From Candidatus Scatosoma sp. (lineage in GTDB: Bacteria; Bacillota; Clostridia; Christensenellales; Borkfalkiaceae): DNA of 64,000 nt. The stretch spans positions 8,300 through 72,299 of the forward strand of contig JAZSHX010000019.1 in assembly GCA_045533485.1 (NCBI GenBank). The letters are read 5' to 3'. The position numbers and the translations under genes were made by a program. The notes under the pieces were generated by a model. The model was not told the origin of the DNA, searched no databases, and saw only the letters and a list, made by a program, of their open reading frames with translations. This document shows positions 9,292 through 46,855 of the stretch, piece after piece. The first letter of the stretch is position 1. Each line of letters opens with the position of its first letter.

Positions 9292-11622
9292 TTATTCCGC
9301 ATCTGCAAAGTTAAGCGTAACGTCGCTATACGTATATGTGGTATTTGCAATACGCGCCATCGTACCGTTACCATCGGAATCATAGTTCGCAATCAAACGA
9401 AGCCCAATTGTAACAACGGAATACTGACTACTAATAGTGTTCGCTTTCGGCGTACCATCTGCTTCGAAATAATTAAAGTAAGTTTCTGCCTTAATTGTAA
9501 GCGTTACCGTGCCATCTTCATTAATAACGGGCGTACTGTCAATATTGTGACATTGATAATTATTTGCCGAACCGTCATTATACCACAAAATGTTGCAGGT
9601 ATACGTATGGTTGCTATGTGCTACAAATTCTGCAATCTTATATCCTTGCGCAGTCAACTTAAACGAAACAGATTCTGCACCCTTCGCTACGAATACATAC
9701 TTTAACCAACCTGCACTAAAACCAGTCGCACAGTTGTTGCCCGTCATCAAGAACGAAGCACTATTTAAGTCGGATTTAACGGTGGTGGTATCTACTCTCG
9801 TATCAAAATACGTTGCATCCAGCATTGTAACGTTCGGTGTCACATCGTCAATATAACCGCCCTTTACATAGCTTCCATTCGAAACATAAATACCAAAGCC
9901 CACGTAATTGATATCCGTACCGCTCAAAAGCTTACCATCCGTACCAAAAGCCGTATGATATTGCGCCGCCGTAAGCGTATTCAAGAAATATCCACCGTCT
10001 GCAACGTAAACTTGCGTTCCCGCTGTAATTTGCGAAGCAGTAAAGCTATTCGCGTATACTCTAAAACTATGCGTTGTCGTTGCACTCGCATCAGAAGAAT
10101 ACCACTTAAATCGCAACGAAGACGCTTGTAATTCGTTGAATACGTAATGCAAGTAGCTGGAGTCAACTACAAATCTGTTCTGCGAAGTATTAGAATCAAC
10201 TTTAACCGCATAATTACCATTTGCCGCCGTGGTCGCTACCGCCGTTGCAGCCATTGCACCAGCCGAAGTACCGCCTTGGATAGCCGCATTTGCTTTGCCA
10301 TCTTCAAAATTAATCGTGTCTACCGTATAATCGCCCATTTGGATATCATCGAAATACAAAATTTCAGGCGTAACGATATTTTGTGCTGCTGTTACGTTAT
10401 CTCCCGTGAACGCGATACGCATACAATGATTATATTCATTGCGTAACATTACATTCCAAAAATCTCTGTTATAGGAGAGCGTAAACTTATACAACGTTTC
10501 TTCGCCGTTCTGTACGGGAGAACCTTCTGCATAAAACATATTAGTACTGTTATAGCCATATAACATTTGGTAAGGAGAACCGTTCGCATTGTCATACAAA
10601 TAACGAATGTATGGAACATCAGAATAAATCGTCCACGTGAAATAGTCGTGTTCTTCAAAAATCCAGTTGATATAGTCTACGTTAAATGCAAATTTAGGAT
10701 TTTGAATATACTGTTCACCATTAAATGTACATTCTTTGACGTTTAATACTTTGTTGTTATCGGCAAGCGTTACAATTTCCCAATTAGTATTTCCGTTTAC
10801 ATTTGCCAAAGGAGAAACGGTTGCTTCGCCTTCAAAGCCGTATTTTTCGCCCCAAGTGCTTACGATTTCGCAAACCGTACCTGCGCCGCCCATAACTGCG
10901 TTGATTTTCGCTTTGCCTACGCCCGTTACCGTCACTTTACCATTGTTATCTACGGTTGCAACGCTGTCGTCGGACGAAGACCACATAACGCTATATCCGG
11001 CAGGCGTCGTCGTTGCCGTAAGCTGCACGGTTTCGCCAACTTCCGCTTCGATGCTTTGTCCGTCTTGTTCGCCAAGCGAAATTGCGCTGACAGCATTTGC
11101 CACGAACGCGTCTAATTGCGTGTCTACCGCGCCGCCTGCCAAAACTTTCGAAGCCGTTTTCGCGATGCTGGTCGTTGCTTCGTTGGACGTATGTACCACT
11201 TCGCCGTTTACTTCTACGTACGAAACAGCCGTAACTTCCGTCACGTAATCGCTTGCAGGGATTTCCAAAAGCACTGCGTTCCAGCCCGTGCTGTCCGTGC
11301 GCCAGTTGGTTGCAGGTACTTTCACTTGATAGGGAACTGCGTTGCCGTCGGGGTTTTGTTCCGTTACCACGCTGGACGTGAACGAAAGCACCGTGTAGCA
11401 TTCGGTGTTTTCCGCGCCTTTCAAATATTCGGGGCAGTCCACCTTAAATCTCAAACCCGTGGGGTTATTCACCGAGCCGTCGCCAAGACGTACAGCCGAT
11501 TCGGAAATTTGGAATTTAGTCCAGTCGGTTTCCGCTTGTGCGGTCACGTTTGCCGCGCCTACGCCTGCGCAAAGCGCCGCTGCAAAAGCCAAGGATGCTA
11601 CTAACGTAATTTTCTTTCTCAT
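9292..11622 (-). CDS. secreted protein with signal peptide, bacterial Ig-like (Big_2) domain and repeated beta-rich, CBM-like regions
   Basis: ORF 9292..11664. Start at ATG 11622 (AAGGAGGA 9 nt upstream). Signal peptide MRKKITLVASLAFAAALCAGVGA..AQA. Big_2 signature VQLTATTTPAG..WSSSDDSVATVDNNGKVTVTGVGKAKI. No LPXTG or C-terminal anchor. AT-richer than its neighbours by eye. Confidence 0.85.
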   Translation of the reverse strand: MRKKITLVASLAFAAALCAGVGAANVTAQAETDWTKFQISESAVRLGDGSVNNPTGLRFKVDCPEYLKGAENTECYTVLSFTSSVVTEQNPDGNAVPYQVKVPATNWRTDSTGWNAVLLEIPASDYVTEVTAVSYVEVNGEVVHTSNEATTSIAKTASKVLAGGAVDTQLDAFVANAVSAISLGEQDGQSIEAEVGETVQLTATTTPAGYSVMWSSSDDSVATVDNNGKVTVTGVGKAKINAVMGGAGTVCEIVSTWGEKYGFEGEATVSPLANVNGNTNWEIVTLADNNKVLNVKECTFNGEQYIQNPKFAFNVDYINWIFEEHDYFTWTIYSDVPYIRYLYDNANGSPYQMLYGYNSTNMFYAEGSPVQNGEETLYKFTLSYNRDFWNVMLRNEYNHCMRIAFTGDNVTAAQNIVTPEILYFDDIQMGDYTVDTINFEDGKANAAIQGGTSAGAMAATAVATTAANGNYAVKVDSNTSQNRFVVDSSYLHYVFNELQASSLRFKWYSSDASATTTHSFRVYANSFTASQITAGTQVYVADGGYFLNTLTAAQYHTAFGTDGKLLSGTDINYVGFGIYVSNGSYVKGGYIDDVTPNVTMLDATYFDTRVDTTTVKSDLNSASFLMTGNNCATGFSAGWLKYVFVAKGAESVSFKLTAQGYKIAEFVAHSNHTYTCNILWYNDGSANNYQCHNIDSTPVINEDGTVTLTIKAETYFNYFEADGTPKANTISSQYSVVTIGLRLIANYDSDGNGTMARIANTTYTYSDVTLNFADAE

Positions 11623-11768
11623 TGCCACGTTTCCTCCTTGCTGTTTGCGTTGCCGGGGAACCAAACACCGTTGTCCCCGTTGCTGTCCGTGAATTCCGCC
11701 GACGCTGTTAAAACGTCTGCATCGTCAAGGATAAGCAATTTGAGTTCAAAAGCTTCATACTTTCTCAT
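11619..11768 (-). CDS. 49-aa acidic small ORF translationally coupled (ATGA) to the Big_2 protein gene
   Basis: Hand translation gives MRKYEAFELKLLILDDADVLTASAEFTDSNGDNGVWFPGNANSKEETWQ. AAGGAGGA lies 10 nt upstream of its ATG. Its TGA overlaps the downstream ATG, and its last codons encode the downstream SD. Too short for the ORF track. Confidence 0.45.
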   Translation of the reverse strand: MRKYEAFELKLLILDDADVLTASAEFTDSNGDNGVWFPGNANSKEETWQ

Positions 11769-36864: not shown

Positions 36865-39861
36865 TTACAATGTTACTGTTCCGTCGTTGCAAACCACCTG
36901 CGTCGCAGGTACGCCTCGATTCCATCCATAACCTTTCTCAATCGCGTCCCATTCTTCTTTCGTACCATTAAACGTCAGGCTTGTTAGGATACAATCTTCA
37001 AACGCCCACCTACCAATGGTTTCTACACTGTCAGGAATGGTTACACGCGTTAAACTGTCACACGTATTGAACGCACCATCGCCAATCGTCGTTACACTGT
37101 CGCCAATAGTCACACTTGTTAAATTGCTACAAAACGCAAATGCGTAATAGCCAATCGAAGTTACACTGTCGGGGATAACGATGGCTTTTATCTTGTTATT
37201 TTCATAAAACGCCTGTTGATAAATACTTTTCACGGGCAGCCCGTTATAGGTATCCACAATGACAACATCCGTTGCCGTACCCGTATATCCAGTTACCATC
37301 GCATACGTGCCATCATCGGAAACTTGATATTGCAAACCATCCGTGCCTTGCAACAACGTCTTGGTGAAAATAATTTGCAAATCAGCAGATACGCCTTGAT
37401 TCCAATTTTCACCTTTCACAATCGCATCCCATTCTTCTTTTGTACCATCAAACGTAATGCTTGTTAAGTTTTTGCAATCCGCGAATGCATATTCGCCAAT
37501 AGAAATTATACTATTAGGAATTTCAAAGCTTGTTATATTAGTACAACCCTTAAATGCACCACCAGCAATAACCTTTGTTTCTTCATGGATAACATACGAA
37601 TACAAATTTTTATTTTTCGCATACAATACAGCATGATGTTCATTGCCTTCGTTGCCTAAATATGCAACATTGAGATAAATAGCAGGATAAAAACTATACA
37701 AGTATTCGGTAAGTATTGCATTATATGCAATATTTATTACACTATCGGGGATAATGATATTTTCCAAGCTAGAGCCATAATAGAAGGCATTTTCGGCAAG
37801 TGTCGTCACGCCATCAGGAACAATAAAGATATCTTCATAATAACTGGAAGCTAAAATAAGCGTTTTCCCGTCTTTTGTATATACACTACCATCTATTGAC
37901 TTGTATTTCGCATTATTCTCCGATATCGTTATATACAAAGACCAACACCAACCAAATTGCTCTCTTCCAATCCATTCTACACTATCACCGATAAAAACCG
38001 TACCCAATGATTCACAATGAGAAAATGCCCCAACGCCAATTGTTTTTACGCCGTTCCCGATTATTACATCAGATAAAACCATATTCTCAATAAACGCATA
38101 AGCACCAATTGAAATTACACTGTCAGGAATCACTAATTGCCCATGGTTACAACCAGCGAACGCATAATCACCTATTATCTTGACCCCATTCGGTATGTTT
38201 ACCGTAGAAATCCACCCAGTAGAAAAAGCATGATTATTAATAACTTGAATACTATCAGGAAGCATCACGCTCAACCATTCATGACCGCGATAAAATCCCC
38301 CGCCATTCCCAATGTGTGTTACCGGCACCCCATTATAAGTGCTAGCAACTCTGATCCGTGTTGCTGAACCTGTATAGCTTGTTGCAATTGCATAAGTACC
38401 ATCCGAAGAAATACAATATTCTATCCCTTCCGACGCCTTAATCAACATTTTGCAAACTGTACACACACCTTCTGCATCCAACGAGTGTTCTCCATAACCT
38501 TTTACCTTCGAACAATCTTTACATTCATACCAGTGATAAAAATCATCCAACGTATACGTTGTAAACCATGCGTGCGTATCAACAATCGCCGTGTAATTAT
38601 TTTTTATTTGTTCGCCACATTTACCACACGTTTTCACATCATAACCTTGCGTGGTACAAGTCGGCGCAACCGTTGTCACCTCGCCCCACTTATGTCCTGC
38701 CATAACGTAATTACTCTTTTCTTCCGTTCCGCACACACCGCAGGTTTTGGTGTCATAACCGTCCGTGGTACAGGTAGCCGCAACCGTTGTTGTTGCTCCC
38801 CACGTATGTCTTGCATTTACAAAATTCGTCTTTTCTACGTAATCGCAACGCGTACAAGGCGTTTGCGTGTAGCCGTCCGTTGTGCAAGTGGGCGCAACCG
38901 TCGTCGGCGTTCCCCACTTATGCCCTGCGGAAACGTAGTTTTCTTGCACTGCCGTTCCGCACGTTGTACACGTCTTGCTGTCATATCCTTGTTCCGTGCA
39001 AGTAGGCGCAACCGTCGTCACTGCGCCCCAAGCATGGTTATTCGAAATCGCCGTGTAGTTGTTCTTCACTTCTTCTCCGCAGGTTGTACACACCTTCACG
39101 TCATAACCCTGCACCTTACAGGTAGCCGCAACCGTTGTTGTTGCTCCCCATTTGTGTCCTGCTGGTACAACGTTTTCTTTTTTTACTTCACTGCAAGCCG
39201 TACAAGGCGTTTGCGTGTAACCGTCCGTCGTACAAGTGGGCGCAACCGTCGTCGGCGTTCCCCACTTATGCCCTGCGGAAACGTAGTTTTCTTGCACTGT
39301 CGTTCCGCACGTTGTACACGTCTTGCTGTCATATCCTTGTTCCGTGCAAGTAGGCGCAACCGTCACTACCGCGCCCCAAGCATGGTCGTTGCTGGTTGCC
39401 GTGTAGTTGCTTTTCACTTCTTCTCCGCATACACGACACGCCTTTTTATCATAACCTTGGTCTTTACAGGTAGGCGCAACCGTCACTACCGCACCCCACG
39501 CATGCGTTGCGTCCACGTGATTTTCTTGCACTGTCGTTCCGCAGACGTCGCAGGTTTTTTCATCATACCCCTGCTCCGTGCAAGTAGGCGCAACTTTCGT
39601 CACTTCGCCCCACGTATGTCTTGCCGGTACGAAATTTTCCTTTGCTTCTTCGCCACAGCTTGTACAAACTCTTGCATCGTAGCCATCTTTTGTACAGGTA
39701 GGCGCTACCGTGGTAGGGTTACCGTAGGTATGTACGTGCGGCGCATTCTCAATTTCGTAATTGCTATACGAATAATACGCTGAGCACGACGCCAAACCGC
39801 TAATCGTCAACGCCGAAAACAGCGCTACCAAGCATAACTTTAACCATTTTTTGCCTTTCAT
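36865..39861 (-). CDS. large surface lipoprotein A: lipobox signal peptide, 10 tandem His/Cys modules plus cap, two BspA-type leucine-rich-repeat blocks
   Basis: ORF 36865..39897. Start at ATG 39861 (GGAG upstream). Signal MKGKKWLKLCLVALFSALTISGLASC (lipobox LASC). Ten repeats of H.WG....VAPTC...GY....C..CG. LRR_5-like repeats (IPDSV..IG..AF..C..L). C-terminus FNGTKEEWDAIEKG.GWN...VVCNDGTVTL is paralogous to 43613..46855. Confidence 0.9.
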   Translation of the reverse strand: MKGKKWLKLCLVALFSALTISGLASCSAYYSYSNYEIENAPHVHTYGNPTTVAPTCTKDGYDARVCTSCGEEAKENFVPARHTWGEVTKVAPTCTEQGYDEKTCDVCGTTVQENHVDATHAWGAVVTVAPTCKDQGYDKKACRVCGEEVKSNYTATSNDHAWGAVVTVAPTCTEQGYDSKTCTTCGTTVQENYVSAGHKWGTPTTVAPTCTTDGYTQTPCTACSEVKKENVVPAGHKWGATTTVAATCKVQGYDVKVCTTCGEEVKNNYTAISNNHAWGAVTTVAPTCTEQGYDSKTCTTCGTAVQENYVSAGHKWGTPTTVAPTCTTDGYTQTPCTRCDYVEKTNFVNARHTWGATTTVAATCTTDGYDTKTCGVCGTEEKSNYVMAGHKWGEVTTVAPTCTTQGYDVKTCGKCGEQIKNNYTAIVDTHAWFTTYTLDDFYHWYECKDCSKVKGYGEHSLDAEGVCTVCKMLIKASEGIEYCISSDGTYAIATSYTGSATRIRVASTYNGVPVTHIGNGGGFYRGHEWLSVMLPDSIQVINNHAFSTGWISTVNIPNGVKIIGDYAFAGCNHGQLVIPDSVISIGAYAFIENMVLSDVIIGNGVKTIGVGAFSHCESLGTVFIGDSVEWIGREQFGWCWSLYITISENNAKYKSIDGSVYTKDGKTLILASSYYEDIFIVPDGVTTLAENAFYYGSSLENIIIPDSVINIAYNAILTEYLYSFYPAIYLNVAYLGNEGNEHHAVLYAKNKNLYSYVIHEETKVIAGGAFKGCTNITSFEIPNSIISIGEYAFADCKNLTSITFDGTKEEWDAIVKGENWNQGVSADLQIIFTKTLLQGTDGLQYQVSDDGTYAMVTGYTGTATDVVIVDTYNGLPVKSIYQQAFYENNKIKAIVIPDSVTSIGYYAFAFCSNLTSVTIGDSVTTIGDGAFNTCDSLTRVTIPDSVETIGRWAFEDCILTSLTFNGTKEEWDAIEKGYGWNRGVPATQVVCNDGTVTL
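38446..39738 (-). repeat. tandem array of ~114-120-nt coding repeats (His/Cys modules), including a near-identical internal duplication with 348-nt period
   Basis: Eleven consecutive 38-43-aa modules in the protein. DNA around 38885..39016 and 39233..39364 is almost identical; I saw one mismatch in about 130 nt by eye. Confidence 0.85.
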
Positions 39862-40045
39862 AAACCAATCTCCAAATAAAAAAGTGCCGTTTACCAAACG
39901 ATAAACGACACTGCATAAGTGCCTTTATCGCTTAGTTGCGACACTAACTCAAAAATAACCCATAGTGAAAGGTTTTATAGAAACGCGAAAAAGGTACACT
40001 TTGCCTAAAAGTATACTTCCACTATGCGTTATTAAGTTAGGTCGC
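39862..40045 (-). promoter_or_regulatory. structured 5' leader A: nested helices P1-P3, alternative antiterminator/pseudoknot pairings and an intrinsic terminator (candidate riboswitch-like attenuator)
   Basis: Hand folding of the minus-strand transcript. P1 is 40032..40045 with 39938..39952. P2 is 40020..40026 with 39961..39967. P3 is GUAUACUU/AAGUGUAC. Terminator arms 39882..39892 and 39902..39912 are followed by a U-run. Every helix is kept by compensatory changes in the paralogous leader at 46856..47037. Confidence 0.6.
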
Positions 40046-40136: not shown

Positions 40137-42398
40137 TTAGCGTATTCGTCTTTCTTCTTTACAGGTGCAGTAAATAATTTGATATTTTTTTGCCAGCCGT
40201 TGCGCCATCCGCTTGGCAAGCGCGGTCGTCGTGTCGTCCAAATGCACGAACGGATCGTCGAAAAGCAGTACGGGCGGTTCGCCTGCGTACACCGCTTCGA
40301 TAAGCGCCAAGCGCATACAAAAACCTATCAATTCTTGCGTGCCTTGGCTGTAATACGCAAGGTCGCGCAACACGCCGTTTTGCTCCAACAGCGGCGTGCC
40401 GTCCGCCGTAAATTTCAAAGCGGCGGTAAAATCCGTTTTCAATTCCGCAAGCAATTTCGCGCTAATGCTTTCCACGGGCTGTAAGTACCGCGCAGCCATA
40501 TTTTCACGGGCGCGCTCCAAAAGTGTTTTCGCTGTTTGCAAAGCGCTGAAACGGCGTTCCAAACGCGCTTTTTCCGCAAGCAGCTGCGCTTCTTCCGCTT
40601 TATAATCGGCAAGCGAATACGCCTTTTGTTCCAGCGCCGCCACGCTGGCTTTCACGTTCGCAATCTCCATAAACGCCGCGCGCTCGTCCGTTTCCAACGC
40701 CGCAATCCGTTTTTTTAACTCTTCCACGTCCGCCATAGCGTACATATCGGCGGACATAGAGTCCGCAGACGCACTCTCCTTGGGCAAGCTTTCGCACGCC
40801 GAAACGGCAAGCTCCCGTTCTTGATATTCTTCTTGGTACGCTTCGCACTTTTCTTTGAGCGACGAAAGCGCCGCGCGGTAATCGTACGTTTCCGCAAACG
40901 CGAAATTGCTCAAAAAGCTCTCAATCGCCCCTTTCAGTTCTTCCGCGCGCCGTTGCCGATTACTCTTTTCTTCTATCAGCTGTTGAATATGCTCGTTTTC
41001 CAAAGCACTGTTTTGCAACTCAATTTGCAACCTGTCAAACTCACGCTGTACTTCCCGATAACGGCGGTTTAATTTTTTATCCTTGAACTTTTTACGGCGA
41101 AACGGGAATTTCCAAAACTTCGTGGAAAATACCGTTTCCAAAAATATCCACGCAATAAAACCGCCGCCCAAGCCCACTAACGGCCAACCGACCACGGGCA
41201 AGCTTTCGATTTGCGTTGCGCCGATCAGCGTGGCGATGAGTGCCAAAAGCAGTTTGAGCGTACCCATCTTTTGCTTTTGCTCGCTGGCGTTTGCTTCGCG
41301 TTGCACGTCGCGGAACGCTTTGCGCGCTTGCTGGTGCTGTTCGTCCAGCATTTGCTCAAACGATTGCAATTCCTTTTGACAGGTATGGTAGGCGTCCAAC
41401 AGCCCCTTGTATTCTTCCTGCTTCCGTCCTTGTTCGTACGATTGCGACTGTTGCGTTTCAAACCACGCAAGCAAATCGTAATACTCTCTCACGGCGTTTT
41501 CTATCCCTTCCACGTTGACCGTCAAGGGATTATTTTGCCCGAAAAACGCCTGTAATTTCGCAAGCTTTTCATCCGCGCGCGCTATGCGGCGTTGTAAATC
41601 CTGCCGTTCCATACGCGCGGCAATCCGCGTACTGTTTTGCATTTGCTCATCGCGCAAAGCGGAGAACTTTTGCAAATCCGCCTGCGTTTTGGCAAGCGAC
41701 GCGTTGAGCTCCTGCAACCGTTTCTGCGCGCCGTATAAATCGATAGCCGCCTGTTGACAATCGCGTTTTTGCGCTTCCAACTGATACAGACGCGCGTCGA
41801 TTTGGTCCAAAAGTCCGTTCTTAGGCGCACGTTTTCCGCGCAGTTTGCTTTCCGCCTGTTCCAAGCGTTGCAACGCCGTTTGCGCACCGCTTTGTTTGTC
41901 GTTTTCCACCGACAAAAGCGCAATCAACCGCGCTTTCGTGTCTTCGGGCAAGCCCTGCGCCGTCATTTCCCCGTGCGCGATATACGCCGTCCTATGATAG
42001 CTTTCTTTATTGATGCCCAAAATCAATTCGCCCAAATTTTCCACGTTTTCGCCAAACGCATAGGCAGGCAAATTGTTCTTATCGTACAACTTCACGGTAT
42101 CCATCGACGGCGTTTTTCCAAATGTGCGCTCTATACGATACGTTTCGTTTCGATAGGAAAAAGTCAAGCTTCCGCCGTACGTTCCCCCTTGGAACGGTTG
42201 ATATTTTTGGCGAATATCGTCCGCGACCTGCTTTCCGCGCGACGCATCCATACCAAAGAGCATACTTTCAATAAACGTGATAAGCGTCGTTTTGCCCCAG
42301 CCGTTGTCTTGCTTGATTTCCACAACGTCCTTGGATAAATCAAACGCTTGATTGATAAACTTACCAAACGCCGTAATATGGCAGGAAATCAGCTTCAT
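40137..42398 (-). CDS. SMC/Rad50-like AAA ATPase (YhaN/SbcE-like) with a central hydrophobic hairpin
   Basis: 753 aa. N-terminal P-loop NGWGKTT, long Q/E/K/L-rich coiled coil, two hydrophobic helices at about aa 380-424, and a C-terminal Walker B-like LLFDDPFVHLDD. Confidence 0.82.
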   Translation of the reverse strand: MKLISCHITAFGKFINQAFDLSKDVVEIKQDNGWGKTTLITFIESMLFGMDASRGKQVADDIRQKYQPFQGGTYGGSLTFSYRNETYRIERTFGKTPSMDTVKLYDKNNLPAYAFGENVENLGELILGINKESYHRTAYIAHGEMTAQGLPEDTKARLIALLSVENDKQSGAQTALQRLEQAESKLRGKRAPKNGLLDQIDARLYQLEAQKRDCQQAAIDLYGAQKRLQELNASLAKTQADLQKFSALRDEQMQNSTRIAARMERQDLQRRIARADEKLAKLQAFFGQNNPLTVNVEGIENAVREYYDLLAWFETQQSQSYEQGRKQEEYKGLLDAYHTCQKELQSFEQMLDEQHQQARKAFRDVQREANASEQKQKMGTLKLLLALIATLIGATQIESLPVVGWPLVGLGGGFIAWIFLETVFSTKFWKFPFRRKKFKDKKLNRRYREVQREFDRLQIELQNSALENEHIQQLIEEKSNRQRRAEELKGAIESFLSNFAFAETYDYRAALSSLKEKCEAYQEEYQERELAVSACESLPKESASADSMSADMYAMADVEELKKRIAALETDERAAFMEIANVKASVAALEQKAYSLADYKAEEAQLLAEKARLERRFSALQTAKTLLERARENMAARYLQPVESISAKLLAELKTDFTAALKFTADGTPLLEQNGVLRDLAYYSQGTQELIGFCMRLALIEAVYAGEPPVLLFDDPFVHLDDTTTALAKRMAQRLAKKYQIIYCTCKEERRIR

Positions 42399-43480
42399 AA
42401 CGCAATCTCCTCCCCTGCAAGCGCCTGCAACCCGATTTCCAGCACTTCCGCGCGGAAATCTTCGTTCATCTCATACCTGCCCACTTCTCTTATAAATTCT
42501 CCGCGCTCCGTCACGTCGTTTGCGTACGCCTGCGCGTCGATAAGAAGCCGCGATTCGTCCAGCACCTTCGCGTCGAAAAATATCTCTTTCAGCTTTTGCG
42601 TGAGCATAGCCGTATCCTTGCGCAAGCCCTGAAGGTATCTTCCGCAAAGCACGATTTTCACCAGCATATTTTTATCGATACCGCGCACTGCGCCAAGTAC
42701 CGCTTTTTCCACGTCGAAATACGTTTTACAAGCGGAAATATCCACGCGTACGGGCAAAATTTTGCGCGTAGCAAAGGAAAGGAACTTTTCCCCCACAAGC
42801 TTGCCGTTTTCCACTTCCAAAAGGAAAAATCCGCGATCGCCTTCTTCATCGTAACCGCGCCCTTCGGGGCAACCGCAATAGCGGTATTTTCCGCGCCCGT
42901 CCAAACGCTCCGCCTGCAAGGTGGGCTTATGTATATGTCCCAGCGCCAAATAATCAATATGCTTGTTTTGCAAGTACGCAAGCGGAATTTCGTCGTCCGT
43001 TTGCGCGTATTCCTTCACGACAGCGCCGTGTAAGAGCATAATGTTAAACGCGCGCGCGTCTAATTGCAAGGGCGAAGAAAACGCAGAAGAAAAATTGCTC
43101 GCGTCCGCGCCCGTCAGCACTACGTTTTCCCCTAAAGCGTATTGACAAAATGTGTTTTGATGGGAAAACAAATGCAAATTTTGCGGTAAGTGCGCAGGCA
43201 ACGCCACCTTTTTATCGTGATTGCCCGACACGTAGAAAAATTGCACGGGGCTTGCGCTTTCGATAAGCGAAAACACTTCGCCTTTCACCTGTGCCGATAC
43301 GTCGTTTTCGTCGAATAAATCGCCGGCAATCAGCACTGCGCCAACGCCGTTGGTTTTACAATACGCGCAAAGCTTGGCAAACCCGTCTAAAATTTCCGCT
43401 TTGCGAAGCAGCGCTTTATCCCTTGGCAACCCGACGAACGCCGAACCGATATGTATATCCCCCGTATGTACGATGCGCAC
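42395..43480 (-). CDS. metallophosphoesterase DNA-repair exonuclease (SbcD/YhaO-like)
   Basis: 361 aa. Motifs GDIHIG, GDLFD, GNHD, GHIH. GTG start. 4-nt overlap with the ATPase gene. Confidence 0.86.
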   Translation of the reverse strand: MRIVHTGDIHIGSAFVGLPRDKALLRKAEILDGFAKLCAYCKTNGVGAVLIAGDLFDENDVSAQVKGEVFSLIESASPVQFFYVSGNHDKKVALPAHLPQNLHLFSHQNTFCQYALGENVVLTGADASNFSSAFSSPLQLDARAFNIMLLHGAVVKEYAQTDDEIPLAYLQNKHIDYLALGHIHKPTLQAERLDGRGKYRYCGCPEGRGYDEEGDRGFFLLEVENGKLVGEKFLSFATRKILPVRVDISACKTYFDVEKAVLGAVRGIDKNMLVKIVLCGRYLQGLRKDTAMLTQKLKEIFFDAKVLDESRLLIDAQAYANDVTERGEFIREVGRYEMNEDFRAEVLEIGLQALAGEEIAL

Positions 43481-43612: not shown

Positions 43613-46600
43613 TTATAACGCCACCGTGCCGTCGGTGCAAACGACTTGTTTGACGGAAAGTCCATACGACCAGTTAACACTCTTACCAACAGCGTTCCAT
43701 TCTTCGATAGTCCCGTTGAATTTCAAGCTGGTGACAGCGGAACAGCCTTCAAAGGCATACCCTGCAATCACTTTCGTGTTTTTATGGATGGTATACGTTG
43801 TTAACTTCGTGTCGGAAACGTCCATCAACGCCGCAAAGGCATTGTTATCGTTGCCCAAATACTTGCAATTACCGTACGCAGTATACTGCAACGAATACGT
43901 ATTACTAAATGCATAACTGCCAATCGAAACAACGCTGTCAGGGATAACCACACTGGTTAAGCCACCACAATAATTGAAAGCCATTTCGCCGATAGACGTA
44001 ACACCGTCGGGTATCACCACTTCCCTTAAAGCGTAGCAGTTAGCGAAAGCATACGCGCCGATAGAGGTGACACTGTTAGGAATAACCACGCTGGTCAATT
44101 GATTACATTGGAAAAATGCATACGGTTTAATTTCCGTCACGCCTTCGGGAATCACCAAATCCGTAACAAGCTGATTGTTGATATATAATCTCGTCACTCC
44201 ACCATCGCCAAAGAAACTTGCGTTATGCTCTTTTACCGTAATATTACACCAACCTGCAACGTCCCCTTTATAATATACGTTTTGGACATAACACCTATAA
44301 AGAGCATAATCACCAACGGAAACAAGACTTGCGGGAACGGTAAGATTCGTTATGCCTACACTGTTGCCGTTATCAGAGGAGAACGCATACATTGCGATAT
44401 TTTCCACGCCGTCGGGAATAACAAAGTCCGTTCTGTGACCGTAACCGATGGCATAGCGCACAAGCGTTTTTCCGTCCTTTGTATACAGGTTTCCGTCAAT
44501 CGATTGATATGCCGTGTTGCTTTCGGATACAGCTATATTTTTCAAGCCGTAGCATGCATAGAAAGCCAGTTCCCCAATCGTTTCTACGCCAGCGCCAATC
44601 TGTATGCTTGTTACGGCTGTACACCCGTAAAACGTCCTTGCTCCCAACGTTGTAACGCTGTCGGGAATGACAATCTCCGCCAATGCGGAACAATTATAGA
44701 ATGCATCCTCGCCAATGGAAATAACGCCTTCGGGAATACTTATATTCGTTAAATTTTTGCAACCTGAAAAAGCGCCGCCTGCTATTACCTTGGTCTTTTC
44801 ATGCAACGTGTACGAGGATAAATCCGTGCTGGTAACCCCCATCAAGAAATAGAAATCGTTGCCGTCCACACCCAAATATTTACAATTTGCATATTCGGTA
44901 TAAGAAATTCTACAGTTATAAAATACGCGACTGCCAAGAGAAACAATACTCTCAGGAAGCTCTACGTTGGATAAAGCGCAATATGCAAACGCATCATAAC
45001 CGATAGAAGTAACACTGTCGGGAATAACAACACTACTTAAAGTTTCACAACGATAGAAAGCAGAATTGCCAATGGTCGTAACACCGTAAGGAATTACCAT
45101 TTCCTTTATACCTGTACAAGAATAAAATGCACAAGCTCCAATCGTTTCAACGCCGCTGCCCAGCGTTACGTTTTTCATTAAGCGACAATCACGGAATGCC
45201 TCAACGCCAATTGTTTTCACGCTGGCGGGAAGTACCAGCTCCGTCAAATCACAAGACCAGAATGCATGATAGTCAATCGTTTTTACGCTATTGCCCCACG
45301 TTATGCTGGTTAAGCCGCTATCCGAAAACGCATAACCGCCAATCGTTTCAACGCCGTTGCCAAGCGCTACACTTTTTAAAGCGCTACAGGAAGTGAAAGC
45401 ATATTGGGCAATCGTCTTTACGCTGTCGGGAATAACAACGGCTGTAATTTTTCTGTTTGAAGAAAATGCGTTTTTGGAAATACCCGTCACCGGTACGCCG
45501 TTGTATGTATCGGCAATTTTCACTTTCGTTGCCGTACCTTCATAACCCGTCACTTCCGCATACGTACCGTCCGCGGAAAGCGTATATACAACACCTACCG
45601 TTTCCGTAATAGGTTGACCGCAAAGCGTACAAATATCGTTTTCGCCGTATACGTGCTCTTCCTTTTCTTGGGTTGCGTCACACTTTTGGCATGCATACCA
45701 GTGATACGTGCCGTCCGCCGTATACGTATTTGCCCAAGTATGCTGCGCGTCTACGAAGTTATTTGTCGTTTCCGCTTCGCAAACGGTACATTTAACCACG
45801 TCGTAGCCCCGTTCGGTGCAAGTGGGCGCTACCGTGGAAACGGTTTCCCATGCGTGGTTGTCCGTTACTTCCGTATAATTGCTCTTTTGCGTCGCTTCGC
45901 AATTTATGCACGTTTGCAAATCATAGCCCTGCTCTGCGCAAGTAGGCTCTACCGTCACCGCTTCGCCCCACGTATGTCCGCCGTGTTTCCACTCAATATC
46001 GCTACACGTTGCGCAAATTCTGGACAACAGCGTTTGTTCGCAAAATACGTTTTCCGTAGCGCCAAAAGCTACCCATTCGCCCCAACTATGTACATGCTCT
46101 TCTTCCTTGGGCATTTCCACCGTTTGCCAAGTTCCGTTGGAATAATAGATTATTAAGTTTCCATCTTTATCTATTTCAACTTTGGTTATGCTGACGCCCT
46201 GCTCGCCTTGGTCGCCCTTGTCACCCTTTTCGCCTTGGATGCCTTGCTCACCTTGGTCGCCCTTATCACCCTTGTCGCCTTTCTCGCCTTGGATGCCCTG
46301 TTCGCCTTGGATGCCTTGTTCGCCCTGGTCGCCCTTGTCACCCTTTTCGCCTTGGATGCCTTGTTCGCCTTGGTCGCCCTTATCACCCTTTTCGCCTTGG
46401 ATGCCCTGCTCGCCTTGGTCGCCCTGGTCGCCTTTTTCACCCTTTTCGCCCTGGATGCCTTGCTCACCTTGGTCGCCTTTATCACCCTTTTCACCTTGGA
46501 TGCCTTGTTCGCCTTTCAGCCATGCTAAAAAATCCGCTTGCGTGCCGCTATGCCCGTTCGCAAGCCAAATTTCATAGGCAGATTGTCCATCCGCCCCGTT

Positions 46601-46855
46601 TATGCCGTCTTTACCATCCGCGCCGTCTTCCCCTTGAATGGTCGCGAGCCAAATTTCATACGAAAGCGGTGTTTCCCCCTGCGCTTCCACGTATACGACG
46701 TACTGTTGGTACACGGCTTTGATTTGTTCGTCCATTTGAACGCCATTTACGCTTGAAGAAGATTTATCCCCCACATCACAGCCGCCAAGGGCCAAGCCCG
46801 CGCCAAACATACTCATAAGTGAGAGCGCAAGCGTCAAGATTTTTTTGCCTTTCAT
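43613..46855 (-). CDS. large surface lipoprotein B: lipobox signal peptide, collagen-like G-X-Y region, His/Cys modules plus cap, BspA-type LRR blocks
   Basis: 1080 aa. Signal MKGKKILTLALSLMSMFGAGLALGGC. Two YEIWLA motifs. About 35 G-X-Y triplets (GEKGDKGDQGEQGIQ units). Modules H.WGEAVTVEPTC..GY....C..C. LRR_5-like repeats. C-terminus FNGTIEEWNAVGKSVNW...VVCTDGTVAL. Confidence 0.9.
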   Translation of the reverse strand: MKGKKILTLALSLMSMFGAGLALGGCDVGDKSSSSVNGVQMDEQIKAVYQQYVVYVEAQGETPLSYEIWLATIQGEDGADGKDGINGADGQSAYEIWLANGHSGTQADFLAWLKGEQGIQGEKGDKGDQGEQGIQGEKGEKGDQGDQGEQGIQGEKGDKGDQGEQGIQGEKGDKGDQGEQGIQGEQGIQGEKGDKGDKGDQGEQGIQGEKGDKGDQGEQGVSITKVEIDKDGNLIIYYSNGTWQTVEMPKEEEHVHSWGEWVAFGATENVFCEQTLLSRICATCSDIEWKHGGHTWGEAVTVEPTCAEQGYDLQTCINCEATQKSNYTEVTDNHAWETVSTVAPTCTERGYDVVKCTVCEAETTNNFVDAQHTWANTYTADGTYHWYACQKCDATQEKEEHVYGENDICTLCGQPITETVGVVYTLSADGTYAEVTGYEGTATKVKIADTYNGVPVTGISKNAFSSNRKITAVVIPDSVKTIAQYAFTSCSALKSVALGNGVETIGGYAFSDSGLTSITWGNSVKTIDYHAFWSCDLTELVLPASVKTIGVEAFRDCRLMKNVTLGSGVETIGACAFYSCTGIKEMVIPYGVTTIGNSAFYRCETLSSVVIPDSVTSIGYDAFAYCALSNVELPESIVSLGSRVFYNCRISYTEYANCKYLGVDGNDFYFLMGVTSTDLSSYTLHEKTKVIAGGAFSGCKNLTNISIPEGVISIGEDAFYNCSALAEIVIPDSVTTLGARTFYGCTAVTSIQIGAGVETIGELAFYACYGLKNIAVSESNTAYQSIDGNLYTKDGKTLVRYAIGYGHRTDFVIPDGVENIAMYAFSSDNGNSVGITNLTVPASLVSVGDYALYRCYVQNVYYKGDVAGWCNITVKEHNASFFGDGGVTRLYINNQLVTDLVIPEGVTEIKPYAFFQCNQLTSVVIPNSVTSIGAYAFANCYALREVVIPDGVTSIGEMAFNYCGGLTSVVIPDSVVSIGSYAFSNTYSLQYTAYGNCKYLGNDNNAFAALMDVSDTKLTTYTIHKNTKVIAGYAFEGCSAVTSLKFNGTIEEWNAVGKSVNWSYGLSVKQVVCTDGTVAL
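46196..46513 (-). repeat. imperfect 45-nt tandem coding repeat (collagen-like GEKGDKGDQGEQGIQ units with 9-nt indels)
   Basis: Protein aa 115-220 is uninterrupted G-X-Y. The DNA shows the repeated block ccttggtcgcccttgtcacccttttcgccttggatgccttg. Confidence 0.9.

Follow-up and report, generated by a model that had tools for sequence, protein, structure and literature searches.

This study concerns a 64,000-nucleotide stretch of DNA from Candidatus Scatosoma sp. (GenBank assembly GCA_045533485.1, contig JAZSHX010000019.1, positions 8,300 to 72,299 of the forward strand), referred to below as the window, and within it a gene on the minus strand for an exported protein, lipoprotein 1, that carries an array of ten tandem units with His and Cys at fixed positions. 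From the N-terminus, the protein consists of a signal peptide with a lipobox, the ten units, a cap and a head of BspA-type leucine-rich repeats (LRRs), and a paralogue is encoded in the same window. The coordinates of the features are collected in Table 1. The reading frame of lipoprotein 1 (36865..39897, minus strand) gives 1010 residues when counted from a TTG at 39897 and 998 from an ATG at 39861; the ATG is probably the translation start, because a GGAGA Shine-Dalgarno sequence lies 7 nt upstream of it. Residue numbers used here follow the 1010-residue frame. The lipidated Cys is then residue 38, and a linker of 15 residues separates it from H54-V-H56. The lipoboxes of both proteins, read by eye as MKGKKWLKLCLVALFSALTISG-LASC in lipoprotein 1 and MKGKKILTLALSLMSMFGAGLA-LGGC in the paralogue (A-L-G-G-C in full), agree with the pattern [LVI][ASTVI][GAS]C, and an earlier annotation made from the letters alone (the preliminary description) was right to place the protein outside the cytoplasm, since L-A-S-C can be read directly from the translation. 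It had also placed the array between lipid anchor and LRR head, as a stalk, and this placement is supported by the domain order. Matches to LRR_5 exceed the Pfam gathering cut-off of 27.7 in both proteins, with 235 bits for lipoprotein 1 and 410 bits for the paralogue. A plus-strand reading frame opposite the repeat (38485..39783, 432 aa, rich in Arg and Cys) was considered as a gene and rejected as a shadow of the codon pattern of the repeat.

The ten-unit array

Each unit (here called a bead) is 38 or 40 residues long and follows the signature H1, W3, P11-T12-C13, G17, C23-x2-C26 and N-[YF], with the same spacing of His1, Cys13, Cys23 and Cys26 in 10/10 units. When a hidden Markov model (HMM) of the unit was run against the six-frame translation of the window, all ten were recovered with per-unit i-E values of 1e-19 to 1e-22, and there were no matches elsewhere in the 64 kb outside the paralogue. 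This bears out the earlier count of ten tandem His/Cys modules; the span then given, 38446..39738, runs from H54 to slightly beyond C482. The further claim that every unit reads H-x-W-G needs a correction, in that unit 1 has H-T-Y-G.

At the DNA level, Tandem Repeats Finder (TRF) also picks up the array, at periods of 114 and 348, and the longer period reflects a block duplication in which units 3-5 and 6-8 form two copies. These share 82% DNA identity and differ by 17 synonymous and 22 non-synonymous codons, and units 4 and 7 are 96% identical. Apart from this duplication, the units are only 50-70% identical to one another. The array appears to have grown in blocks of three, and its 38-38-40 aa rhythm tracks the block.

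Predicted metal sites shared between units

Which residues belong to one site was examined in two protein sets that together hold about 4,400 units. In the first (set 1), consecutive units were compared among 1,136 anchored units from 120 homologues; the second (set 2) is independent and consists of 150 giant proteins. In set 1, C13 of unit n-1 predicts an intact triad in unit n (His1 plus the third ligand) with an odds ratio of 61 over all pairs and of 13 (p=6e-4) after de-duplication at 60%, whereas the odds ratio for C13 and the triad within one unit is only 0.04 to 0.8. Set 2 gives the same picture, with an odds ratio of 9 between units (p=8e-6) and of 1.2 (not significant) within them. 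C13 is therefore referred to below as the donor to the following unit.

The loss of a donor is met by a change in the unit that follows. Among de-duplicated pairs of set 1 that have C13(n-1), a Cys or His stands two residues ahead of His1(n) in 1/353; among those that lack C13(n-1), the figure is 25/33 (p=2.6e-31), and two of the eight donor-less pairs without such a residue have H-x-C. The corresponding figures in set 2 are 0.9% with and 30% without a donor (p=1e-16). By these statistics, the Cys or His at -2 is a compensatory substitution for the lost donor Cys. Array ends fit the same rule: [H/C]-x-H opens about 23 of the 29 arrays of the set 1 homologues whose starts are not fragments (manual tally), and at the other end 39 of 43 unique terminal units in set 1 lack C13 and retain His1 and CxxC, against a background in which C13 is present in about 86% of units overall. 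In set 2, the donor is absent at 40/42 array ends and in 6% of all units. Because covariation, compensation, array starts and array ends agree in two protein sets, the predicted four-ligand site is one that lies between units and is made up of donor C13 of unit n-1 with His1, C23 and C26 of unit n. A re-phased site, consisting of C13, C23 and C26 of unit n-1 and His1 of unit n, was also considered and rejected. It would leave C23 and C26 of last units without a use and would need no His in first units, yet what terminal units lose is C13 alone, with His1 and CxxC retained, and first units have gained a ligand beside His1.

The preliminary description had also noted a distinct cap after the array, and its ligands were found as described (H442, H455, C459, C462, H471, C479 and C482, within aa 442-482, nt 38452..38574). 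The cap is two shortened beads: a bead of a type designated HW, in which His455 is the donor, followed by a minimal terminator that has no donor. H442, H455, C459, C462 and H471 are invariant among the HW-type units in an alignment of 14 sequences. The two-part cap recurs once in the paralogue and twice in the homologue P0140, and HW-type beads are also found scattered within many arrays, or opening them, in which case they bear H-x-H.

Applied to lipoprotein 1, the inter-unit rule uses 34 Cys and 14 His, that is 48 ligands or 12 sites of four (listed in Table 1), and leaves over only H127, which is at a non-ligand position. The paralogue has 13 Cys and 7 His, making 20 ligands for five four-ligand sites.

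The preliminary description had taken the one His and three Cys of a unit as a single zinc-ribbon-like site, a claim that covariation and the array ends overturn by moving C13 into the site of the next unit. On that earlier view, each unit would be a self-contained zinc ribbon or knuckle with its own His1, C13, C23 and C26, and the array would be beads on a string joined by ordinary linkers. This would fit the fixed spacing of one His and three Cys in all ten window units, and the window proteins do show sub-threshold matches to the Pfam zinc-ribbon models YhfH, Zn_Ribbon_TF and Zn_Ribbon_1, the first of them marginal (a summed score of 27.1 against a threshold of 27, with no single domain passing). 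It is nevertheless very improbable. C13 has no positive association with the His and CxxC of its own unit (odds ratios 0.04-1.5) and a strong link to the next one; a His at -2 in the following unit offsets its loss; last units dispense with C13 but not with His1 and CxxC; and first units bear an extra His or Cys. The ligand count closes in the inter-unit register only, since the intra-unit register orphans H54 and leaves the cap one ligand short. If the strands predicted by AlphaFold2 (AF2) pair as in the subdomains of the IgA protease discussed below, C13 would also lie opposite His1 and CxxC on the sheet, and AlphaFold 3 (AF3) models of the homologous IgA protease domains put the sites at interfaces (PMC12237041). 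The beads do resemble classical zinc ribbons, such as the TFIIS C-terminal domain, TFIIB and rubredoxin-like knuckles, in having a C-x-x-C knuckle at the tip of a beta-hairpin and four Cys/His ligands. They differ in that there is one knuckle per unit rather than two per domain, the predicted site is inter-domain, and the other two ligands come from a single His ahead of strand 1 and from the neighbour's Cys; moreover, the module is extracellular and forms long tandem arrays.

A second alternative is that the cysteines are disulfide-bonded or free and bind no metal, giving disulfide-braced repeats, like EGF modules or other Cys-rich spacers, whose conserved His would have some different cause. 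Export of the protein speaks for this, since Cys-rich repeats outside the cell usually carry disulfides; in addition, 58 degenerate 'xCCx' units retain only C13 and C23, which could pair or be metal-free. Against this, the number of Cys per unit is odd (three), the His is as conserved as the Cys, and Cys and His replace each other in both directions at ligand positions: C-x5-H stands in for C-x2-C in at least 52 units, HW-type beads have a His donor, and there are four HHCC units. Such interchange argues for metal ligation rather than disulfides, and sets the repeat apart from EGF-like modules, as do three Cys and one invariant His per unit. Donor loss is compensated by His, the ligand count of a junction is four, the host Clostridia of gut and rumen are strict anaerobes, and no disulfides have been reported in the IgA protease despite its 24 Cys (PMC12237041). 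Disulfide bracing is accordingly improbable, if marginally less so than self-contained ribbons, and of the two natures that the preliminary description allowed for the module, the zinc-like one is supported and the disulfide one is not. The metal of the predicted inter-unit sites is most probably structural Zn(II). As a separate observation, further bead variants exist in which the knuckle is replaced by C-x-C, C-x4-C or C-x5-H, and the donor/triad logic is kept in all of them.

Table 1. Features of the two lipoprotein genes in the window and the metal sites proposed for lipoprotein 1.
Feature	Residues	Nucleotides	Strand	Basis or remark
Lipoprotein 1 gene		36865..39861	minus	ORF list; Pfam LRR_5, 1.7e-70, in C-terminal half
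Signal peptide MKGKKWLKLCLVALFSALTISGLAS/C with lipobox L-A-S-C		39784..39861	minus	read from translation
Array starter	H54-V-H56	39730..39738	minus	[H/C] at -2 of His1 in homologue array starts
Ten tandem bead units	aa 56-441	38575..39732	minus	unit HMM, AF2, covariation
Block duplication, units 3-5 vs units 6-8, two 348-bp copies		38809..39504	minus	TRF period 348, unit identity matrix
Cap, first half, HW-type unit, H442-A-W...Y-H455-W-Y-E-C459-K-D-C462	aa 442-470	38488..38574	minus	14-sequence alignment, AF2, profile
Cap, second half, minimal terminator, H471-x7-C479-x2-C482, no donor residue	aa 471-482	38452..38487	minus	ligand book-keeping
C-terminal BspA-type LRR head	~aa 495-1010	36865..38415	minus	Pfam PF13306 (LRR_5) matched over four stretches, 235 bits
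Lipoprotein 2, the paralogue (1080 aa), with lipobox, collagen-like region, three units and cap, LRR_5 head		43613..46855	minus	ORF list, Pfam
Predicted zinc-bead segment of paralogue	starter H254-V-H256; units aa 256-371; cap aa 372-412	45620..46096	minus	motif parse; unit HMM matches 45743..45976
Collagen-like G-X-Y region of paralogue, GEKGDKGDQGEQGIQ...	aa ~75-225	46195..46515	minus	TRF periods 9/45/54/99, Pfam Collagen
Proposed site 1	H54, H56, C78, C81			starter His at -2 in place of absent donor Cys
Proposed sites 2-10	C13(n-1), H1(n), C23(n), C26(n)
Proposed site 11	C414, H442, C459, C462
Proposed site 12	H455, H471, C479, C482			H455 as donor

The paralogue has a larger LRR_5 head than lipoprotein 1 (Pfam E-value 1.8e-124) and a collagen-like region (Collagen, 5.8e-20) of about 45 G-X-Y triplets between its lipobox and its beads, with partial NCBIfam matches to the Lcl and Scl adhesins. 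By implication, the paralogue would have a trimeric portion of stalk joined in line with the bead rod. Two canonical units had previously been described ahead of the paralogue cap, but three are counted here, the first of which (aa 256-293) is divergent. The interval between the two lipoprotein genes (40137..43480, minus strand) encodes an SbcC-like AAA_23 ATPase of 753 aa and an SbcD-like metallophosphoesterase of 361 aa, which overlap by 4 nt and have no obvious functional link to the genes on either side. At 9292..11664 (minus strand) lies a gene for another large putative surface protein, of 790 aa, with a Big_2 domain and no zinc-bead units.

Predicted structure and relatives

AF2 models of units 8-10 with the cap, made from a 58-row alignment of unit triplets, have a pLDDT (predicted local distance difference test) value of about 97 for the units and give each of them three strands, at positions 3-9, 17-23 and 29-35. 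A model of unit 10 and the cap, using 14 HW-type relatives, gives the cap a pLDDT of about 90 and a hairpin that bears the C459..C462 knuckle. Neither model found a fold match in a Foldseek search of the PDB (none with E<0.1). If the strands pair up-and-down as in the IgA protease (PMC12237041), then one end of the sheet would hold His1, C23 and C26, and the opposite end, beside the next unit, C13.

The relationship to the IgA protease came from profiles. When the whole array was used as a single-sequence phmmer query, no match was found among PDB sequences; a profile of unit 10 and the cap with HW-type relatives (A2) matches the Thomasclavelia ramosa enzyme (9qa6_A) at E=4.5e-25, over residues 858-970 and 1071-1136, and a three-unit profile (A1) does so at E=2.5e-4. 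By profile comparison, the cap-type units are clearly homologous to domains ZBD1 and ZBD2 (also called CTD2 and CTD4) of this protease, which cover E879-T1008 and G1101-T1171 of the M64 enzyme (UniProt Q9AES2; PDB 9qa6 construct; PMC12237041, PMC12415215). The domains have been modelled with AF3 as three-stranded up-and-down sheets with putative tetrahedral Cys/His zinc sites at the subdomain interfaces, one subdomain showing a distant resemblance to the zinc domain of TFIIS (PMC12237041), and small-angle X-ray scattering (SAXS) found CTD2 to be a fully extended rod (PMC12415215). On the strength of the AlphaFold models and SAXS, these 2025 papers describe the region as a predicted zinc-linked, rod-like "periscope" fold that is uncharacterised; neither reports an atomic structure of the ZBD or CTD2/4 domains, and both state that an experimental one is still missing. 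A third paper on the protease calls these regions merely beta-sheet domains.

The donor/triad rule, applied to the protease sequence, places 9 His and 11 Cys in five sites, and these totals equal the published ones. It puts the site with one His and three Cys (HC3) in ZBD1, since ZBD2 offers just four Cys over its aligned part and ZBD1 seven; the legend to Fig 1C of PMC12237041 places its single three-Cys/one-His site (site 8) in ZBD2. The likeness extends to the H-x-H starter, the HW-type units and the donor-less last unit, and to four-ligand Cys/His interface sites, which are derived here from sequence statistics and there from AF3 models. Both are surface-anchored proteins of gut Firmicutes for which a stalk role is proposed. 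In the protease, two short, heterogeneous modules of 2-3 subdomains each are split by an Ig-like barrel and lie C-terminal to the enzyme, their sites are mostly of two His and two Cys, and a sortase motif provides the anchor; in lipoprotein 1, ten HC3 units with the 'PTC' motif and a cap lie N-terminal to an LRR head and behind a lipobox.

The preliminary description could not assign the module to a named domain family, and the A2 match now links it to domains already described. It had also held that a confident match to a characterised repeat domain would refute it; half of this has come about, the matched domains being themselves predicted only and unnamed in the domain databases searched here. 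The fold, flagged in 2025 in one enzyme, is thus not categorically new. What appears new is an extended HC3-type array that ends in a defined cap within a lipoprotein adhesin, together with the family-wide ligand rule. In the literature searchable here, no paper was found on the family at large, on long homotypic arrays or on the starter, donor and terminator grammar, and searches on tandem or extracellular zinc-ribbon repeats, on Cys-rich repeats with dockerins and on periscope plus zinc returned only the IgA protease papers.

In keeping with the earlier label of an unnamed module, no Pfam-A or NCBIfam model covers the repeat in the window proteins or in six of the strongest family members, where, apart from sub-threshold zinc-ribbon matches, only flanking domains are recognised. 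The family is nevertheless large. A word-seeded search gave more than 4,408 matches among 8,000 candidates, and an exhaustive HMMER search with A1 of 1.84 billion cluster representatives (50% identity clusters) gave 71,662 proteins at E<=1e-3, 46,092 at <=1e-10 and 18,081 at <=1e-30. The largest members reach 7,583 aa and more than 60 units. Among 264 members that start with Met, 197 have a signal-peptide-like N-terminus, and the fusion partners (SLH, dockerin, cohesin, CWB2, GH25, CAP, NAGPA, SH3, fn3, Big_2 and LRR_5) are all extracellular. When GTDB species representatives were searched with a degenerate DNA pattern for PTCTEQGYT, more than 120 loci were found, essentially all in metagenome-assembled genomes (MAGs) of gut or rumen Clostridia, the families being Oscillospiraceae, Lachnospiraceae, Acutalibacteraceae, Christensenellaceae and Ruminococcaceae. 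One locus (L128) is in a MAG labelled as an uncultured Bacteroides, which could be a binning error or a horizontal transfer outside Bacillota. The window itself is placed as a relative of Candidatus Scatosoma by a PNPase with 93% identity. Length variants also occur (e.g., in P0004, P0011, P0038 and P0140), with a short unit of 26-28 aa that reads G-H-T-x-G-x2-A-T-C-x2-D-Q-T-C-x2-C-G and likewise keeps the donor/triad logic. Besides the ligands, conservation in the bead falls on P11, T12 and G17 and on aromatic residues at positions 3, 18 and 34; the remainder are variable, which fits a spacer.

Other stalks and zinc domains offer more distant parallels. The array shares with the SasG/Aap G5-E, Rib and SHIRT stalks its small, beta-rich tandem repeats, read as lacking a conventional hydrophobic core, and the proposed task of projecting a head from a Gram-positive surface on an elongated stalk, but sequence and fold differ, and the window proteins have no Pfam matches to G5, Rib or SHIRT. 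Zinc in Aap bridges two molecules by way of His, Asp and Glu. The zinc predicted here is, in contrast to that of the SasG/Aap G5-E zinc-zipper repeats, intramolecular, Cys-rich and fully coordinated, with Cys and His as the only ligands. The 50-70% identity between units is also unlike the near-identical repeats of these stalks. Periscope proteins are reportedly defined by Whelan et al. by a long array of highly similar tandem repeats that varies in number between strains and forms a rod-like stalk; of these features, lipoprotein 1 shows an array of ten units, with one recent three-unit block duplication and units that are otherwise only 50-70% identical. The way in which ligands of successive sites interleave, C13(n-1)...[C23, C26 of n-1]...H1(n)...[C13(n)]...C23, C26(n), recalls RING, LIM and tandem treble clefs, but these are compact intracellular two-zinc domains rather than an open-ended chain of sites, and no similarity of sequence or fold to them was found.

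A proposed stalk and its wider meaning

Taken together, the array is read as a rigid stalk of three-stranded beads that are joined by shared His/Cys metal sites and carry the LRR head, with a probability of roughly 0.7. The beads would be small beta-sheets without a hydrophobic core of their own, held head to tail by tetrahedral metal sites, each common to two beads. Bead n would give the triad, formed by His1 just ahead of strand 1 and the C23-x-x-C26 knuckle at the turn between strands 2 and 3, and bead n-1 would give the fourth ligand, the Cys that its P-T-C loop holds at the distal end of the sheet. An extra His two residues ahead of the first His1 (H-V-H) would open the chain, and an HW-type bead with its His donor, followed by a donor-less H...CxxC terminator, would close it. 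With a four-ligand site shared at every junction, the rod would be rigid, and its role would be one of spacing rather than binding. From the lipid-anchored N-terminus at the membrane, the rod would pass through the cell wall and hold the BspA-type LRR binding head out beyond it. Scaled from the published ZBD1 model, which measures about 110 Å for 129 residues (PMC12237041), the 429-residue segment with its 12 sites would be about 35 nm long, which would suffice to bring the LRR head across a Gram-positive wall from its lipid anchor.

Several points weigh against this model. The predicted template modelling (pTM) scores of the AF2 models are 0.56-0.60, so that the orientation of bead to bead is not confidently predicted. 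Donor-less junctions with no substitute at -2 or +2 make up about 5/33 in set 1 and 37/53 in set 2; some are anchoring errors, and three-ligand or metal-free junctions probably exist. In whole subfamilies complete sites take turns with abolished ones. In that of P0019 (P0019, P0028 and about 25 near-identical relatives), 'H-x-C-C' units, which have no donor, alternate with 'x-C-C-x' units, which have neither His1 nor the third ligand, so that under the inter-unit rule each second junction is complete and the other abolished; a metal at each junction is therefore not required for beads to fold and chain. Extracellular thiolate-zinc sites are chemically fragile, and are plausible here only because the hosts are strict anaerobes. 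No metal analysis of the IgA protease domains, or of any family member, was found in the literature searched. Finally, domain order and analogy are what speak for a stalk, and a binding role may also apply.

Such a role is the subject of a third alternative, in which the array is itself functional, either as a zinc-dependent switch or reservoir, whose rigidity or length would respond to zinc availability (host nutritional immunity), or as a ligand-binding surface that aids adhesion alongside the LRRs. In its favour could be counted the number of predicted metal sites, twelve in each molecule and over 60 in the giant homologues, and proteins such as P0147 and P0253 that have no Pfam-recognised domain beside the beads. 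On the other hand, the surface positions of the units are poorly conserved, the promiscuous fusion to unrelated catalytic, anchoring and binding domains is typical of spacers, and fully coordinated Cys/His sites leave no position open for bridging or exchange. A functional array of this kind is unlikely, though less so than either of the alternatives weighed above; it could stand alongside the structural model, as an addition and not as a substitute.

Should the stalk model be correct, one simple rule would make it possible to read a very large share of the giant surface proteins found in uncultured Clostridia of gut and rumen: stalk length is estimated from the number of beads, a rod begins at H-x-H, and it ends at a donor-less unit. 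Among these proteins are adhesins, lysins, CAP proteins, IgA proteases and enzymes that are cellulosomal or anchored to S-layers. The family merits an entry in Pfam/InterPro, and the grammar of units and cap sets clean construct boundaries for a first experimental structure. The model would also provide a testable case of extracellular structural zinc-thiolate sites, which are rare and probably confined to anaerobes, and suggests that zinc limitation or oxidation would collapse such stalks.

It can be proposed more tentatively, as a possibility rather than a likelihood, that the beads both rank among the largest extracellular domain families still unannotated in Clostridia of gut and rumen (at least 71,662 clusters at 50% identity, with over 60 beads in some proteins) and embody a distinct structural principle, an open-ended chain of inter-domain Cys/His zinc staples with its own starter and terminator motifs, which would make a rigid rod out of core-less beta-sheets and be viable outside the cell only under anoxia. 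Were both parts true, stalk integrity, adhesion, display on cellulosomes and S-layers, and the cleavage of IgA would depend on the zinc and redox state of the gut lumen, and host nutritional immunity and exposure to oxygen would be tied directly to the surface architecture of these anaerobes.

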